Shown one piece after another: positions 5,124 to 45,035 of a stretch of DNA of 55,701 bases. The position numbers and the translations under genes are program-made. Position 1 is the stretch's first letter. Every line of letters begins with the position of its first letter. Source of the stretch: a virus (lineage: Duplodnaviria > Caudoviricetes); IMG/VR virus record IMGVR_UViG_3300031740_000002, positions 1 through 55,701 of that record; one strand, written 5' to 3'. The notes beneath the pieces are model-generated. The model worked only from the letters and a program-made list of their open reading frames with translations. It made no database searches and was not told the origin of the DNA.

Positions 5124-5786
5124 CTACGGGTAGGCGTTGATAGCGCAGGCCGAAGGTGGCGGCGTGGTGCTCTGCAGGTTGTAGAGATAGTGGTCCCCTG
5201 CGACCACCTGGCCCGAGCCCAGATAGCTGTTGCCGACCGTCCACAGCGGCGACGCGTCGTACGAGTTGGCCTTCAGCTGCAGCATCGACGCGTCCGGCCC
5301 GAAGGTCGTATCGCCGCGCTTGCCGTCGGACAGGTGCGGCCACGCGTGATACGGGTAGTAGGCCGTGCCGGTGCCGTCGCACGAACTGGCCGGCACCTGC
5401 CACAGCTCGAGGCTGAAGTGCTTGGGCGTCGCGTTGGACCATGTTCCGTGGGCGAAGCCGGTACCGGTCGGCGAGGCGGTGGCGGTGAGCAGCCGGGCGT
5501 TGATGATGCCGACCGGCAGTCCGACGTTCCAGCCGCACAAGTCGATCGTGACTTCGTCGTTGGTGTACTGGTCCGGGAACTTGAAGTTGACGCACAGCGT
5601 CCCGTCGGCCTTGCGGGTGATGACGCGGTTGCCGTTGTCGTACTGCGGCGACGTCTGCACCTGCGTGAAGCCGTCCCAGACCACCTGGGCCGATGACGAG
5701 CCGGTGACCGGCACGCCGCAGGCGTTGAGCGAAACCACGCGGATAACCAGACCCTGGATCGGCGAGGCACACAGAAGGTTGGTCAT
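5124..5786 (-). CDS. Major tail protein
   Basis: GGAG RBS before MTNLLCAS; RVVSLNACG and FSLELWQ motifs; directly after capsid genes. Confidence 0.75.
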   Translation of the reverse strand: MTNLLCASPIQGLVIRVVSLNACGVPVTGSSSAQVVWDGFTQVQTSPQYDNGNRVITRKADGTLCVNFKFPDQYTNDEVTIDLCGWNVGLPVGIINARLLTATASPTGTGFAHGTWSNATPKHFSLELWQVPASSCDGTGTAYYPYHAWPHLSDGKRGDTTFGPDASMLQLKANSYDASPLWTVGNSYLGSGQVVAGDHYLYNLQSTTPPPSACAINAYP

Positions 5787-40396: not shown

Positions 40397-40587
40397 GCGA
40401 TTGGAAGGACGCACGCATGGTGCAGCCGGAGGAAGTCGGCACGCTGGCAAAGTGCATGCACCCCGACTGCCTCAAGATGACGAGGATCACGTTCAAAACC
40501 GAGGTGCAGACCGACAACGGCTGGTCCGCCACCGTGGACCTGTCGTGTGGCCACCGCCAGACCTACAACATTCGCAGCCTGTCATGA
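40393..40587 (+). CDS. Small putative Zn-binding protein
   Basis: CMHPDC and LSCGH; ATGA coupled. Confidence 0.55.
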   Translation: MSDWKDARMVQPEEVGTLAKCMHPDCLKMTRITFKTEVQTDNGWSATVDLSCGHRQTYNIRSLS

Positions 40588-40913
40588 GCGCCGCGGTGCT
40601 GCTGATCCTGACCGTGAGCCACCTCGCCGCGGCGCTCGCCGGTGGCTGGCTGGCCGCCGGCTACGTACGCGCCGGGCAACGCCAGCTCGAAGCCGAAGCA
40701 GAACTGCTGGATCTGCGTCGTCGCTTCGGTCCGCGTCCGCCGACGGTGACCGGCCGCGTGGTCATGCCACTGCCGAGCGTGGCGGGCATGACGGTGGCGC
40801 AGGCGCAGGTAAGCCTGGCGCTGCGTCGCGCACGCCACGCGGAGCGCAGTCTCGCCTTCCAGGCGTTGATGTGGAAGGCCAAGCACCGCGCCCCGGCGTA
40901 CGGCTCGCGCTAG
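40584..40913 (+). CDS. Membrane protein
   Basis: N-terminal TM segment; ATGA coupled. Confidence 0.55.
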   Translation: MSAAVLLILTVSHLAAALAGGWLAAGYVRAGQRQLEAEAELLDLRRRFGPRPPTVTGRVVMPLPSVAGMTVAQAQVSLALRRARHAERSLAFQALMWKAKHRAPAYGSR

Positions 40914-41143
40914 TCGTTGGCCTTCCAGGCCAACCCGCGCTCGATGCGGCGCACCACCTCACGCGTCACGCCGAGCAGCGCGGCCACCTCACCCTGCCCT
41001 GTGCCCGCGGCGCGCGCCGCGATGATGACCGGCACGAGCTCGCGGCGCAGCGCGGCCAGGTCGCTCTCCAGTTGTCGGTACCGGGCGGCCATGAATCGGA
41101 GCCGGTCCACTTCCGTCAGGGCGCGGCGCGTGTTCGTCGTCAT
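40910..41143 (-). CDS. Small HTH DNA-binding protein
   Basis: QGEVAALLGVTREVVRRI; TTGACA-18-CATAGT-7-ATG. Confidence 0.75.
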   Translation of the reverse strand: MTTNTRRALTEVDRLRFMAARYRQLESDLAALRRELVPVIIAARAAGTGQGEVAALLGVTREVVRRIERGLAWKAND

Positions 41144-41228
41144 GCCTACGACTATGGCCCACAAGCTATGCCTATGTCAAATGCCCATTCGGTGGGCATG
41201 ACTGACCGAAAGTATGACCCGTTCAGGC

Positions 41229-41257
41229 TTGACACGCCTACACTCTAGGCATACACT
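41229..41257 (+). promoter_or_regulatory. Sigma70-type promoter
   Basis: TTGACA-17-TACACT in an AT-richer segment carrying GCCTA/TAGGC repeats. Confidence 0.7.
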
Positions 41258-41480
41258 TAAGGCATAACTACAGAGGAACCTCCCACACCAAGGGGACCGA
41301 AGGGCGCCGGAAGCGCCTCGCGGGAACCGGGCCGGGATCGCAGGGGAACCCGAACAGGGCAGGCAAGAGCGACCGGGAGACGTGACCAAAGGGATCAGCC
41401 ACTCACCAAATGCAACGACATGCACAACCGCCCTGGCGCAGCGCGACACCGCATCTGCGACCGCAGCAGCCCAGGGGCAC

Positions 41481-41564
41481 GGACCGCGGGCCCGCAACGA
41501 CGGCAGCCTGAACGAACACCGAGGCGTAAGGCCTCGTGGCCAGGTTCGACTCCTGGCAGGTCCA
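41481..41564 (+). tRNA. tRNA-like element (non-canonical)
   Basis: T-arm CCAGG-TTCGACT-CCTGG; stem CGAGG-N7-CCTCG; GGACC/GGTCC acceptor; oversize D region and no U33. Confidence 0.45.
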
Positions 41565-41605
41565 CTCCCGCCGCCATCCGGGCGGCCAGTCGGAGGGAGA
41601 CCGAC

Positions 41606-41743
41606 ATGGCAAGACAGCGACGTTACTACCACCGGCCGGAATGGCCCGCTGGTCTCCGGCTCTTCATCGGCGACCAGTGGACGCGGTGGCTGTTGCAGTA
41701 CCGGCTGAACTGCCGGGGCTACGTCGTCCGGGGCGTCCGGTAG
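41606..41743 (+). CDS. 45-aa basic protein
   Basis: GGAGGGAG RBS before MARQRRYY. Confidence 0.45.
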   Translation: MARQRRYYHRPEWPAGLRLFIGDQWTRWLLQYRLNCRGYVVRGVR

Positions 41744-42231
41744 CCAAGCCGGCCGGGAGGGTGCGAGGCCCTCCCGCCCACGAAGGACCGGGACCTCCTA
41801 TGGCCCCAGCGGTTACGAACCCGGTCCGCACCAAGCACCCCAGGAGCCCGATCTGTAAACCGGGGGGCGACCTATGGCCGGGCCTGCTGACGCTAGCGGG
41901 GGCGGTTACGTCGCCCCGGTCCGGGACCTGGGAAGCCCATCCCGAGGGACCCGTCCATCCAGGGCGAACTGAGGGGTACGGGTACGCAGGCCGCGACCAC
42001 CATGACGGGCGCGGTATCGGTCGCGAGTCGCGGCCCAGTAACGGCCGGAGCGATCCCGGCCCCTCCCCGCGTCGAGCGCCCACCGTGCGCGCTCCGCGAA
42101 CCCCTGACGGGACCGCCATGAAAGTGGCCGAGGTCCGAAACCACCATGTGTGGCTGCCCGCTCGGGCGCCCGTGGTCGCGCCGGTGAGTACCGGCGCCTG
42201 ACGAGAGTCAGGGATGCCTGAGGAGGCACCC

Positions 42232-42834
42232 ATGAGCATCAACCGCGTAACTGCGGCAAAGGTCGGAGCGTACGGAATCGCCACCGTCGCGGCAGTCGCC
42301 AGCTTCGGCCACCAGATCCACCTCCTCGAAGGGGCGGATCTGCCCCCACTGTTCGGTGTCGTGCCGTCCGAGTGGGTAACTCCTCTGACCGTTGACCTCC
42401 TGGCGATGGTCGCACTGGCGGTGCGTACCTCGGACACGGTCACCGAGGCAACCCGTAGGGCTGCCTTGATCCCGCTGGTTCTGGCTGGCGGGCTGAGCAT
42501 CGCGGCTAACGTCGCGGAGGCTCGAAACCCCATCCAGGTCGTCGTAGGCGTCTGGACGGTGGCGGCGTACATCCTGGCCGAGCTGTTCGTCCAGAAGATG
42601 GAGCGCAAGGCGGCGCCGGCCGCCAAGGCTGCGACCCGGTCCCGCCGCTGGGTTGTTACGCAGTCGGAGCAGGCAGCGCGCAAGCGTGCCGGCTACGACA
42701 AGCTGGACCGCGCGGCGAAAGCTGAGTGGACCAGGCAGTACCGCGAGCGGGTCTCGAAGCGGACCCCCACGTCGCCCGGCCGGCCGCCGGTGCACGCGCC
42801 TTCCGCCGAGGAGGTTGAGCAGCTCGCAGCGTGA
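42232..42834 (+). CDS. DUF2637-like membrane protein
   Basis: GAGGAGG RBS; ASFGH, PLTVD and SIAANV motifs; about 4 TM, basic tail. Confidence 0.75.
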   Translation: MSINRVTAAKVGAYGIATVAAVASFGHQIHLLEGADLPPLFGVVPSEWVTPLTVDLLAMVALAVRTSDTVTEATRRAALIPLVLAGGLSIAANVAEARNPIQVVVGVWTVAAYILAELFVQKMERKAAPAAKAATRSRRWVVTQSEQAARKRAGYDKLDRAAKAEWTRQYRERVSKRTPTSPGRPPVHAPSAEEVEQLAA

Positions 42835-42878
42835 TCGGACCGTGCTGAGCGGTCCGGTTAGGCGCTCGGCACAATGAG

Positions 42879-42928
42879 AAGGGCGATACCCCCGGTTCTA
42901 ACCGGTCGGGGGTATCGCCCTTTTTTAT
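42879..42928 (+). terminator. Rho-independent terminator
   Basis: AAGGGCGATACCCCC...GGGGGTATCGCCCTT followed by a T-tract. Confidence 0.9.
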
Positions 42929-43004
42929 TGCCCACGCCCAGGTCGTGCGAGCCGTGCTACATTGACATGTCCGCACATCGAAATGACCGGAAGGATCTTC
43001 CCCC

Positions 43005-43349
43005 GTGCATACCGTCAACATCCTGCAGGTGCTGCCTCGCCGGGCGCTGTTCGCGCCCCGCTTCACCCGCACCGACGCCGAGCGACTCGCCGACGTCCTG
43101 AAGGCCCTGGCCGACCCGGCACGGCTGCAGATCGTCGCAGTGCTCTACGCCGCGCCGGAGCACGAGATGGCCGTCTCCCACGTCACGGCAGCCCTGGGCA
43201 CGCTCAAGCAGCCGACCGTGACGCATCACCTGCACATCCTCACCGAGGTCGGGCTGCTGGAGTACCGCAAGCAGGGTGTCTGGACGATGTTCAAACTGGT
43301 GCCCGACGCCATCGCCGCGGTCACCGCCTGCCTGGCGCCACCCGCCTAG
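43005..43349 (+). CDS. ArsR/SmtB family regulator
   Basis: LKALADPARLQI, QPTVTHHL..L..GLL..RKQG. Confidence 0.9.
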   Translation: MHTVNILQVLPRRALFAPRFTRTDAERLADVLKALADPARLQIVAVLYAAPEHEMAVSHVTAALGTLKQPTVTHHLHILTEVGLLEYRKQGVWTMFKLVPDAIAAVTACLAPPA

Positions 43350-43354
43350 CCGGA

Positions 43355-44200
43355 TCAGCTCGGCGCCATCCGCCGGTGCGTCTCGTCGGCGACCGCCACA
43401 GCGACACCGGTGGTCGCCGACGGCGTCAGCGCCACACCACCGGTGTTGATCTGCTTCGCGACCTCGGCCGCGATCGCCTCGATCTGGGCCGGCGTCAACT
43501 CTGCGGCCACCCGCGCCCAGTACGGGCGCATGTCGACCTCGGTGATGACGCCGGCCTCATCCATCGCGCCGGCAGTGTCCGAGCCGGCAGCCGCGGCGCC
43601 GGCGAAGCTCGCCGCGCGGAACAGCCAACTACGCTCCTGAGCGTCCATGTCGCCATCATCTCCATTGCCGAGCGCTGCGTTGACGGAATCGAAAAGGCGG
43701 TCCCAGGGATAGTTGGGACCAGGGTCGGTGTGGGTGGTGCCGCCCCAGGCCTGGCGCATGTCGTCGTGGCTGTAGAACGCCATCACCTGCGGGTTGGCCT
43801 TCATCTCGGCGACGCTGGCGCGGCGGACCTGGAAACCGGACAGCTCAGCTCTGATGACCGTGGCCAGCGCGTAGGCCTGCTGCGTCCAGTTGATGTTGTC
43901 CAGCCACTGCTGGCGCGTCCAAGAGTTGAGTCCGGTCTGCTCGAGGCAGTTGGCGTAGTTGTTGCCGTTGGACGATCCGGAGTGGTTGACCTTGTAGATG
44001 GTGTCGATCGACTGGATGACCTCGATGCGGTCGGTGTAGAGGTGCGAGCCGATGCTGTCGGTGCGCCGGGTGGCGTAGTCCGCTTCCTGGCGGGCGGTGG
44101 CCGTGCTGGCTGTGGCGTGCACGGCCCACCCGTAGTGCCGGCCGGCAGGGTTGGTGTAGTAGTTGCGGCCCTGGATGTATGCGATGCCGGGGATTCTCAC
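43355..44200 (-). CDS. Endolysin, N-acetylmuramoyl-L-alanine amidase
   Basis: VHAT, SH, H, E and HTDPG amidase_2 pattern; follows holin. Confidence 0.88.
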   Translation of the reverse strand: MRIPGIAYIQGRNYYTNPAGRHYGWAVHATASTATARQEADYATRRTDSIGSHLYTDRIEVIQSIDTIYKVNHSGSSNGNNYANCLEQTGLNSWTRQQWLDNINWTQQAYALATVIRAELSGFQVRRASVAEMKANPQVMAFYSHDDMRQAWGGTTHTDPGPNYPWDRLFDSVNAALGNGDDGDMDAQERSWLFRAASFAGAAAAGSDTAGAMDEAGVITEVDMRPYWARVAAELTPAQIEAIAAEVAKQINTGGVALTPSATTGVAVAVADETHRRMAPS

Positions 44201-44209
44201 GGCCGGCGC

Positions 44210-44566
44210 CTAGATCGGCGCTGGGTCGTAGACCGGAGTCGACTGGCTGCGCACGATCAACGCCACGATGCCGGCCACCCCTGCCGTCAGGGTCGCGATC
44301 TGGCTCTGCGCCAGGTGCAGCCCGAAGTAGGCCCCGAGCGGCGCCAGGGCGACGATCAGGCCGGACATGACGGTCGGGGCGACCGGGCGCACCAGCAGCG
44401 CCTGCCAGGTCGTCAGGGCCGCTGCGATGAGCGCCATGATGGCCGCGGCCACGCTGTCGGTCAGGCCGGGCAGACCCAGGCCGACCAGGATCACCAGCAG
44501 GCCCGACACGGCCTGCAGCCACAGTGCGGGATCGCGGCCGAACAGCCGCGGCGCCAGTTCGTTCAT
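44210..44566 (-). CDS. Holin
   Basis: LFGRDPAL start, about 4 TM, R..TP C-terminus; adjacent to endolysin. Confidence 0.8.
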   Translation of the reverse strand: MNELAPRLFGRDPALWLQAVSGLLVILVGLGLPGLTDSVAAAIMALIAAALTTWQALLVRPVAPTVMSGLIVALAPLGAYFGLHLAQSQIATLTAGVAGIVALIVRSQSTPVYDPAPI

Positions 44567-44588
44567 GGTCCACCCCCGTGGATGTTGG

Positions 44589-45035
44589 TTACACCGACAC
44601 CGGCGCCGGCTCGGCAGCCAGGTCGGTCTTGAACCCATTGTTACTCATGATCTCGCCGAAGTTGGCGAGGATCTGTGCGGCCTGCGGGACGTTGGCCACG
44701 ATCAGCCGCTTCATCTCGGCCAGGGTCACCTCGGCCGCGGTCGCGCGGTGCTCAGCGGAGGCCGCGCGTGCCTCGGCCGCGGTGGCGCGCAGGTTGGCCT
44801 CCCGCGCTTCCGCCTTCGCGCCGCGGGCCTCATCGCGGGCCATGGCGGCGTAGCCCTGGATCTCCTCGATGAGCTCGCCGTATGACTCGTAGATCTGGTG
44901 GTGGGCGGCTGCGGTCATCTGCACGGCGGTGGCATCCTCGCGCCTGCGGGAGTAGTAGCCCTGCACCAGCGCCGTAGTTACGCTGCCACCGCTGACGCCG
45001 AAGATTCCGGTGAGGATGATCGCCACCCAGTCCAT
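44589..45035 (-). CDS. Membrane-anchored coiled-coil protein (lysis-associated?)
   Basis: N-terminal TM, Ala/Glu/Arg coil; upstream of holin. Confidence 0.65.
   Translation of the reverse strand: MDWVAIILTGIFGVSGGSVTTALVQGYYSRRREDATAVQMTAAAHHQIYESYGELIEEIQGYAAMARDEARGAKAEAREANLRATAAEARAASAEHRATAAEVTLAEMKRLIVANVPQAAQILANFGEIMSNNGFKTDLAAEPAPVSV

Follow-up and report, generated by a model that had tools for sequence, protein, structure and literature searches.

A new covariation-supported RNA element directly before a start codon in a probable phage mRNA leader

The IMG/VR virus record IMGVR_UViG_3300031740_000002, taken here in full (the window: 55,701 bases, linear, about 75% complete, 64 to 74% G+C), carries a stem-rich, gene-poor kilobase, flanked by a minus-strand helix-turn-helix (HTH) gene and by a plus-strand gene for a DUF2637 membrane protein. 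A sequence-only reading had flagged 41264-42215 as a candidate for one large or several novel noncoding RNAs (ncRNAs). Within this span lies a new structured RNA element of about 150 nt (41470-41608), which sits in a probable 5′ mRNA leader directly before a start codon and is supported by covariation. It consists of a three-way junction followed by a cassette of two hairpins, P5 and P6, with the following parts.

41470-41564, plus strand: conserved three-way junction (P1, P3, P4), defined by covariance model R1, covariation and RNAalifold
41481-41485 / 41559-41563, plus strand: P1, GGACC/GGUCC (relatives GGACU/AGUCC, GGGCU/AGCCC); a variable stretch of 18-20 nt leads from P1 to P3
41502-41505, plus strand: invariant GGCA
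41506-41509 / 41522-41525, plus strand: P3, GCCU/AGGC (relatives GUCU/AGAC, CGCU/AGCG), with the loop GAACGAACACCG, 12 nt in the window and 12-14 nt in the family (GAACGAnCACYG)
C41504-G41526 and G41503-U41527, plus strand: P3 extension from RNAalifold, invariant
41526-41533, plus strand: J3/4 strand GUAAGGCC, invariant GUAAGRCC
41539-41544 / 41552-41557, plus strand: T-arm-like P4 with the 7-nt loop UUCGACU
41570-41575 / 41581-41586, plus strand: P5 hairpin GCCGCC/GGCGGC, 5-nt loop; 4 to 5 of the 6 pairs change on both sides among relatives
41589-41593 / 41601-41605, plus strand: P6 hairpin GUCGG/CCGAC (relatives GUGGG/CCCAC, GUCCG/CGGAC, GGUGG/CCACC)

Relatives of the locus were gathered via the DUF2637 protein, which yielded one viral locus and 13 metagenome loci. 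A pattern of the conserved core added five viral loci (four distinct contigs) and one contig, L057, of a metagenome-assembled genome (MAG); the latter was found among 70 mostly chance matches in species genomes, 16 of which were scored with R1 and only one of which, L057 itself, had flanks that looked alike by eye. In blastn comparisons with the relatives, conservation was limited to 41425-41612 and the DUF2637 gene, with nothing matching upstream of ~41425; with 40500-43100 as the query, the short stretch spanned 41444-41612. The conserved span 41470-41608 recurs in eight other distinct contigs, all soil viral or metagenome contigs apart from the one MAG, and it does so once per record. This leaves nine distinct full-length copies, namely those of the window, L018, L013, L010 (identical in L011 and L019), L008, L016, L020 (identical in L021), L057 and L003.

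The covariance model R1 (124 positions, 21 pairs) gave 12 matches of 86-124 bits across 36 sources, corresponding to these nine sequences and nothing else; its match in the window (41470-41593) scores 124.3 bits. Run on five whole records, one of which is a complete genome of 44 kb bearing terminal repeats, it found exactly one match in each. None of 12 new viral loci from a looser core pattern passed, the three best having E values of 0.32-0.84, and among 150 relatives of the MAG that contains L057 the only match was that MAG itself. L057 is a 38-kb contig of a MAG labelled Chloroflexota, where the element, in its sole copy among species genomes, stands beside an NlpC/P60-LysM gene and DUF2637; it may be a prophage or a mis-binned phage contig. 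DUF2637 lies downstream on the same strand in eight of the nine distinct cases, and in the ninth, L016, the contig stops 81 nt past the element.

Covariation in homologues, which the sequence-only reading had named as a check on its proposed RNA, proved to be strong in 41470-41608. Across the nine distinct rows, 92.6% of cells pair, compared to 74.1% after shuffling, and 14 of the 21 pairs show two-sided changes. The covariation score is 0.458 against 0.116 in shuffled controls, and none of 500 shuffles reached 0.458. When the 3′ partners were slid by one to three columns, pairing fell to 32-51% and the scores to 0.04-0.10. P1 and P3 were already seen on a plain MAFFT alignment, while RNAalifold, applied to the model-fitted alignment, independently recovered P1, P3 and P4 and added an invariant G-U pair, consistent with the plus strand.

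The P5-P6 cassette covaries as well. With 17 distinct rows, weak ones included, its score is 0.311 versus 0.082, again with none of 500 shuffles reaching the observed value; at pair 84/96 in P6, for example, CG occurs six times, GC six times and UA once. The loop of P6 displays the Shine-Dalgarno sequence AGGGAGA (41594-41600), and the last base of the hairpin directly precedes the ATG at 41606. This close spacing is general, given that P6 and ATG are separated by 0-3 nt in all 14 aligned cassette copies. A model of the cassette, R2, matches the window with 71.4 bits (41557-41608) and found 22 matches of at least 38 bits plus three weak ones.

As for the genes that it precedes, the cassette ATG is the start codon of DUF2637 in L013, L010 and L018, a role taken by a second cassette copy in L003, L002 and L004. 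Without the junction, the cassette stands before DUF2637 in these latter three contigs and before further reading frames of the same operon in L008 and L020. The window has a single copy, L008 has three matches of at least 38 bits, and L020 has two plus a divergent hairpin pair after the full element. A search of the window for an antisense partner to the cassette found none. At the three start sites that L008 and L020 each possess, the hairpins differ in sequence within the contig and are nevertheless each self-complementary, which argues for a folded strand rather than an operator of one protein.

The element is flanked by the features of what looks like one transcription unit.

40910-41164, minus strand: HTH gene, left flank of the flagged span
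41229-41257, plus strand: sigma-70-like promoter TTGACA-17-TACACT
41264-41469, plus strand: upstream part of the leader, U-poor, with GGA(A)CC repeats, unconserved in relatives
41606-41743, plus strand: orphan 45-aa open reading frame (ORF) that uses the cassette ATG, with the ribosome site GGAGGGAG
41609-42240, plus strand: 632-nt insertion relative to the relatives, from the cassette ATG to AACCGC, where DUF2637 homology resumes (~42241)
42232-42834, plus strand: DUF2637 membrane-protein gene (PF10935, E 1.1e-4) with its own GAGGAGG ribosome site and an alternative ATG at 42214
42878-42923, plus strand: intrinsic terminator with a 20-bp stem and T-run, 3′ of the DUF2637 gene, closing the operon

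The near-consensus promoter on which the sequence-only reading had opened its transcript stood up as a pattern, with 10 of 12 positions matching, and the transcript probably starts near 41264. Two promoter-like sites were seen in 40500-43500 where 0.2 are expected, and a divergent partner on the minus strand would serve the HTH gene. By eye, the -10-like boxes TACACT and TATACT also occur 5′ of the leaders of L016 and L003. The first part of the window's leader is of unusual composition: 41264-41500 is strongly U-poor, with 13 T in 237 nt, and its five GGA(A)CC motifs form the densest such cluster of the window, a number reached by only one of 1110 windows of equal size. Among the relatives, the leaders of L016 and L003 have CAGGAACCGGGACC in common. 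A motif (TT)GACAACTCCA(CAG) was noticed by eye 5-25 nt past the likely transcript start, after -10-like boxes, in L002, L003, L008, L016 and L020, and the window reads ATAACTACAG at this place (41266-41275, likewise by eye); the motif may be a second conserved piece of the leader or a candidate binding site. In the divergent promoter region itself (41142-41265), GGCAT/ATGCC pentamers occur six times in 156 nt versus 0.45 expected, a number not exceeded in any other 156-nt window of the genome. They look like candidate operator half-sites for the adjacent HTH protein. A search for relatives via the HTH protein (40910-41164) found none.

The DUF2637 protein shares 55-76% identity with its relatives by tblastn (68% with L002 by alignment), and the match of the window to the DUF2637 starts of the relatives stops at 41608. 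The 632 nt that follow are missing from relatives with the same gene order, and no homologue was found in the relatives, cultured phages, plasmids or proteins, where the window itself was the sole match; nor is the orphan part similar to any other part of the window. It is because of this insertion after the cassette ATG that the region looks gene-poor. The same slot is filled in other relatives with small ORFs of coding-like composition, which suggests that it is a place of gene exchange. In other words, this appears to be an exchange hot spot at which small genes and stretches of unmatched DNA come and go while the leader on one side and the membrane-protein gene on the other stay fixed; it adjoins the integration or regulatory genes and the lysis genes.

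The flagged span was said to be largely noncoding, which needs a qualifier in view of the 45-aa ORF inside it. The G+C content of this ORF at codon positions 1, 2 and 3 (GC1/2/3) is 0.65/0.50/0.85, and its GC3-GC2 difference of 0.35 equals the in-frame mean of the known genes, a value that 4.5% of 795 off-frame chunks reach. Although it has no homologue among proteins of 24-79 aa, 41606-41743 is by its composition a probable small gene. The 151-aa translation of 41746-42198 matches just the ORF called on the source contig itself. A 27-aa ORF (42118-42201, MKVAEV...) overlaps a hammerhead-like motif discussed below and stops 12 nt before the alternative ATG 42214; with GC1/2/3 of 0.75/0.54/0.79, it is ambiguous for coding. 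An intron was considered as the origin of the insertion and rejected by inspection of its boundaries, which lack both the U ahead of the 5′ junction and the terminal G of group I introns as well as the GUGYG of group II introns; no intron family came up in the permissive Rfam scan of 40800-42700. A search for terminal inverted repeats or a target duplication at the insertion turned up only a CATG microhomology at both ends.

Outside these relatives, we found no similar sequence in cultured phages or plasmids for 41100-42300, 41264-42231, 41606-42231 or two DUF2637 proteins. The 141-nt element alone gave short matches there, covering 16-39% of it, the best being the T arms of phage tRNA-Trp genes. 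Among sequencing runs, no RNA run is listed as containing the sequence, and the single DNA run that contains all of it may be the source sample.

Taken together, the element is conserved, occurs once per record on the strand of the gene, has covarying helices and directly precedes a start codon. We therefore favor, with reasonable though far from full confidence, the view that the flagged kilobase is the 5′ part of an mRNA with a conserved cis-acting leader of the DUF2637 operon and not a giant ncRNA. A single mRNA encoding the DUF2637 membrane protein would begin at the promoter (41229-41257) and end at the terminator (42878-42923). The junction, in which the unpaired GGCA, loop GAACGAnCACYG and GUAAGRCC are invariant, could be the recognition site for a protein, a small ligand or a processing RNase, and the P5-P6 cassette might control how accessible to ribosomes, or how stable, the mRNA is for the first reading frame. 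In the phage represented by the window, 632 nt of unmatched DNA would have entered right after the cassette ATG, creating or bringing along the 45-aa ORF, a spacer of ~490 nt that holds no convincing ORF, and the new GAGGAGG ribosome site for DUF2637.

Several points weigh against this interpretation. Counting was done on alignments that had been fitted to the model, a procedure that favors the structure, and the distinct sequences number only nine. Stability is unremarkable, with z-scores from -0.15 to -1.83 for eight members folded singly. In the paired columns, A-C mismatches outnumber G-U pairs by 6:1 in alignment A6 and 14:1 in alignment A8, which at face value favors the opposite strand; we tentatively put most of this excess down to P5 being misaligned by one column in L013 and L010 and to three weak rows of A8. 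A CUCCC able to mask the Shine-Dalgarno sequence is present in only four of the nine full elements, and so no conserved switching mechanism is visible. Finally, the cis action on RNA, the function, the strand and the RNA ends are all matters that we infer.

A more far-reaching version, which we put forward tentatively and regard as possible rather than probable, is that the junction represents a new class of sensing or processing RNA (a riboswitch-like aptamer, a site bound by a protein of the phage or of its host, or a tRNA mimic that RNase P or RNase Z would cut) that would switch on a prophage-borne DUF2637 operon. The Shine-Dalgarno hairpins would then indicate that the start-associated sequences of actinophages work as RNA structures. 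To our knowledge, conserved structured RNAs of actinophages are poorly charted, and the start-associated sequences described in 2011 are still without a mechanism. The present element offers a small testable case, with one copy per genome, clear compensatory changes, invariant junction bases and a ribosome-site hairpin that covaries as RNA both between genomes and between copies in one genome.

What remains to be considered is the flagged kilobase as a whole, whose seven listed stems could all be located.

CCCTGG at 41431 / CCAGGG at 41471: stem read from the sequence
41755-41775, plus strand: GC-rich hairpin GGGAGGG (41755) / CCCTCCC (41769), 12 nt past the stop of the 45-aa ORF; no U-tract follows, and it is not among the terminator-like hairpins listed
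GGCCGCGAC at 41989 / GTCGCGGCC at 42027: stem read from the sequence
GGCCGG at 42043 / CCGGCC at 42056: stem read from the sequence
GCCAT at 42115 / GTGGC at 42124: stem read from the sequence
GCGCCGGT at 42178 / ACCGGCGC at 42190: stem read from the sequence
CCTGAC at 42197 / GTCAGG at 42207: stem read from the sequence
42133-42213, plus strand: look-alike of a type II hammerhead ribozyme (CUGACGA, GAAA, GUC triplet; stem I 42178-42185 / 42190-42197)

All the listed stems lie outside the conserved part, except that CCAGGG at 41471 is on its edge. The claim that this is the longest gene-poor stretch of the genome also holds, inasmuch as 41165-42213 (1049 nt) is without an ORF supported by composition and the runner-up measures 592 nt; the gene call behind this figure is a crude one (ORFs of at least 50 aa with GC3 of at least 0.75 and GC3-GC2 of at least 0.2). 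Folding more than expected by chance was borne out weakly. The whole 952 nt beat shuffled sequence (plus-strand z -3.75, minus-strand z -2.80, 20 shuffles each), but local windows mostly did not. Among 23 overlapping windows folded across 41150-42399, the 150-nt windows starting at 41200-42050 had plus-strand z-scores from +0.70 to -1.63, compared to a genome background of mean -0.36 and standard deviation 1.05 (186 windows). The only outliers were those starting at 42100 (-3.15) and 42150 (-3.30), i.e., 42100-42299. A perfect 13-nt inverted repeat, GGGCCGGGATCGC (41329-41341) and GCGATCCCGGCCC (42050-42062), links two unconserved parts of the leader across 708 nt; its chance expectation is roughly 0.05 for 1.2 kb of such composition.

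How well, then, do other explanations account for these observations? The original proposal, that the ~950 nt are one or several stand-alone large structured ncRNAs of the GOLLD/ROOL kind, can point to the z-score of the full stretch, to the long-range 13-nt complement and to the length of the stretch lacking a supported gene, and the window does resemble GOLLD and ROOL loci in that it is a phage-borne, noncoding, gene-poor stretch. We nonetheless consider it most improbable. A scan of the window with the 4227 families of Rfam 15 returned no match at the gathering score, and for GOLLD and ROOL none at E values up to 10 either; the expected tRNA neighbors are absent, there being no tRNA gene in the 55,701 bases. 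The 14 related loci likewise had no Rfam match at the gathering score. E-value scans gave chance-level matches only. Outside 41425-41612, neither the 13 related loci nor the collections searched show any conservation, the sequence is missing from relatives that have the gene order in common, local z-scores are mostly ordinary, and a probably coding ORF of 45 aa sits in the middle. The conserved part, at ~150 nt compared to 400-800 nt, is moreover part of an mRNA leader. What survives of the proposal is thus the new ~150-nt covarying element, whereas the remaining ~800 nt are without a homologue in the collections searched and no ~950-nt ncRNA emerges. The case also serves as a caution that a long, GC-rich, gene-poor and stem-rich stretch can be mostly unconserved, the real signal having come only via relatives. 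For the one locally well-folded part of the span, self-cleavage offers an explanation of its own: the hammerhead look-alike at 42133-42213 would cut the leader after C42177 and leave the DUF2637 mRNA with a 5′ hairpin. By inspection it has all core bases (CUGACGA, GAAA, an A-U pair closing stem III, GUC), along with an 8-bp stem I and a 5-bp stem III, and it coincides with the two outlier windows. Yet its score against RF02276 is 23.6 bits where the gathering score is 37 (E 0.067 for a 1.9-kb search, 40800-42700), and it goes unlisted in the scan of the whole window, in which five unrelated matches have E values of 0.14-6.1. In place of a canonical stem II there is one G-C pair followed by a mismatch, and the stem closes only as a branched helix, 42102-42108 / 42207-42213. 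The site has no homologue that could show covariation, and no hammerhead turned up in 14 related loci. Cleavage at this site seems very unlikely to us, the look-alike being probably a chance match.

The remaining two explanations concern the conserved element itself. It could be a DNA site or relic devoid of an RNA role, either the attP core carrying the 3′ end of a host tRNA or a decayed phage tRNA gene. P1 and P4 indeed resemble an acceptor stem and a T arm, the loop UUCGAC(U/C) is found in three of nine members, and P4 plus P1b of the window (similarly of L018 and L013) recall a T arm followed by the 3′ strand of an acceptor. Over 18 bases there is identity to the tRNA-Trp T arm of Microbacterium phage Caron, and a weaker likeness continues past the tRNA end (E 0.01). 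In addition, L018, L011, L016 and L003 have a tyrosine integrase gene 0.6-2.3 kb upstream. Measured against a tRNA, however, P1 has only 5 bp, the gap between P4 and P1 is 1-2 bases, P3 (4-6 bp with a 12- to 14-nt loop) is no anticodon arm, and a conserved D arm is lacking. The Rfam tRNA model did not match at E values up to 10, and ARAGORN reported no tRNA or transfer-messenger RNA in the window and no tRNA in 10 loci. L010, L008a, L020 and L057 lack the T-loop consensus, yet the stem covaries all the same; covariation is also seen in the 5′ strand of P1 and in P3, P5 and P6, for which an attP half-tRNA offers no explanation. A 27-mer had no exact match in 185,579 species genomes or IMG/VR, which is not final given that the host may be unsampled. 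The record of the window, about three-quarters complete as it is, carries the element and no PF00589 match, the divergent HTH gene occupying the place of the integrase. A site or relic of this type is thus decidedly unlikely in our judgment; descent from a tRNA gene is possible and compatible with a cis-acting leader. Processive antitermination RNAs, such as put of phage HK022 and EAR of Bacillus subtilis, offer another precedent, in which the junction would modify RNA polymerase such that it reads through downstream hairpins. A single copy per genome, with an early-type promoter on one side and the first genes on the other, would fit, as would GC-rich hairpins further down in the window such as that at 41755-41775. 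Against this, the operon in L013, L010 and L018 consists of DUF2637 and then a terminator-like hairpin, which leaves nothing to read through; a start codon invariably adjoins the element, although antitermination has no need of one; and there is no sequence likeness to any Rfam family. We regard antitermination as unlikely and return to the cis-acting leader of the DUF2637 operon as the preferred reading.

As to known classes of such leaders, riboswitch-type and protein-binding leaders combine a multihelix junction, invariant unpaired bases and covarying peripheral helices in a 5′ untranslated region, followed by ribosome-site hairpins. The element shares with them its conserved junction bases and covarying helices in a 5′ untranslated region. 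It differs from the riboswitch class in that none of the 4227 Rfam families matches, in that no conserved mutually exclusive structures were found, and in its very narrow distribution of nine distinct sequences, all of them from soil viral or metagenome contigs and one MAG.

By analogy, the closest known counterparts appear to be the start-associated sequences (SAS/ESAS) of Cluster K mycobacteriophages. According to the passages of Pope et al. 2011 that describe these repeats, SAS is a 13-mer with a Shine-Dalgarno core between GGG and CCC, located 3-7 bp before the ATG and often preceded by an inverted repeat; there are 11-19 copies per Cluster K genome, and the authors stated that the function was unknown and suspected a role in translation initiation (PMC3203893). 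The same passages hold that departures in the repeats do not support RNA pairing, and favor DNA-binding sites (PMC3203893).

As described there, both systems feature a short conserved unit just before the ATG of nonstructural genes, in which a Shine-Dalgarno core is flanked by complementary outer bases (in SAS, 5′-GGGNNNNNNNCCC); in both, the unit stands before genes of different families, and an inverted repeat, set off by a spacer of variable length, often lies ahead of it. The L013 cassette comes within two deviations of the SAS 13-mer GGGATAGGAGCCC as given in that account (GGGTTAGGAGCCG, 884-896), a similarity that 19 of 200 shuffles also attain. The window, in contrast, is without a site for that 13-mer at up to two deviations, and none of its six matches at three deviations lies at the cassette. 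It has a single copy compared to the 11-19 recorded in that description, and stems of 5 bp compared to 3. Moreover, the inverted repeat ahead of the unit shows, in the present family, the covariation of an RNA hairpin, and the junction domain present here is absent from SAS/ESAS as those passages portray them.

Beyond the operon, profile searches revealed a siphovirus-type gene set in the window, comprising tape measure protein, major head protein, portal, large terminase, helicase, exonuclease, holin, endolysin and glycosyltransferases. The lysis genes are placed as follows.

43355-44200, minus strand: endolysin gene, from a profile search
44210-44638, minus strand: holin gene, from a profile search

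Between the integrase gene and the element, the relatives (L011 at ~2450-2760 and L018 at ~5130-5330, as well as L020 and L013) have repeated ATGGACA / TGTCCG-like words and the hairpin CCCCTATAAGTAGAGGGG, which are absent from the window, where the HTH gene takes their place. This part of the relatives looks like an attP or arm-site region. At the 3′ end of the operon, a weak match to ohsC_RNA (42857-42921, 34.9 bits, E 0.14, gathering score 50) overlaps the 20-bp terminator hairpin and is probably due to the hairpin alone. Finally, an ArsR/SmtB-type regulator gene (43005-43349; NF033788, E 4.9e-19) lies between the DUF2637 terminator and the lysis genes, an unusual phage location for a metalloregulator-like gene.

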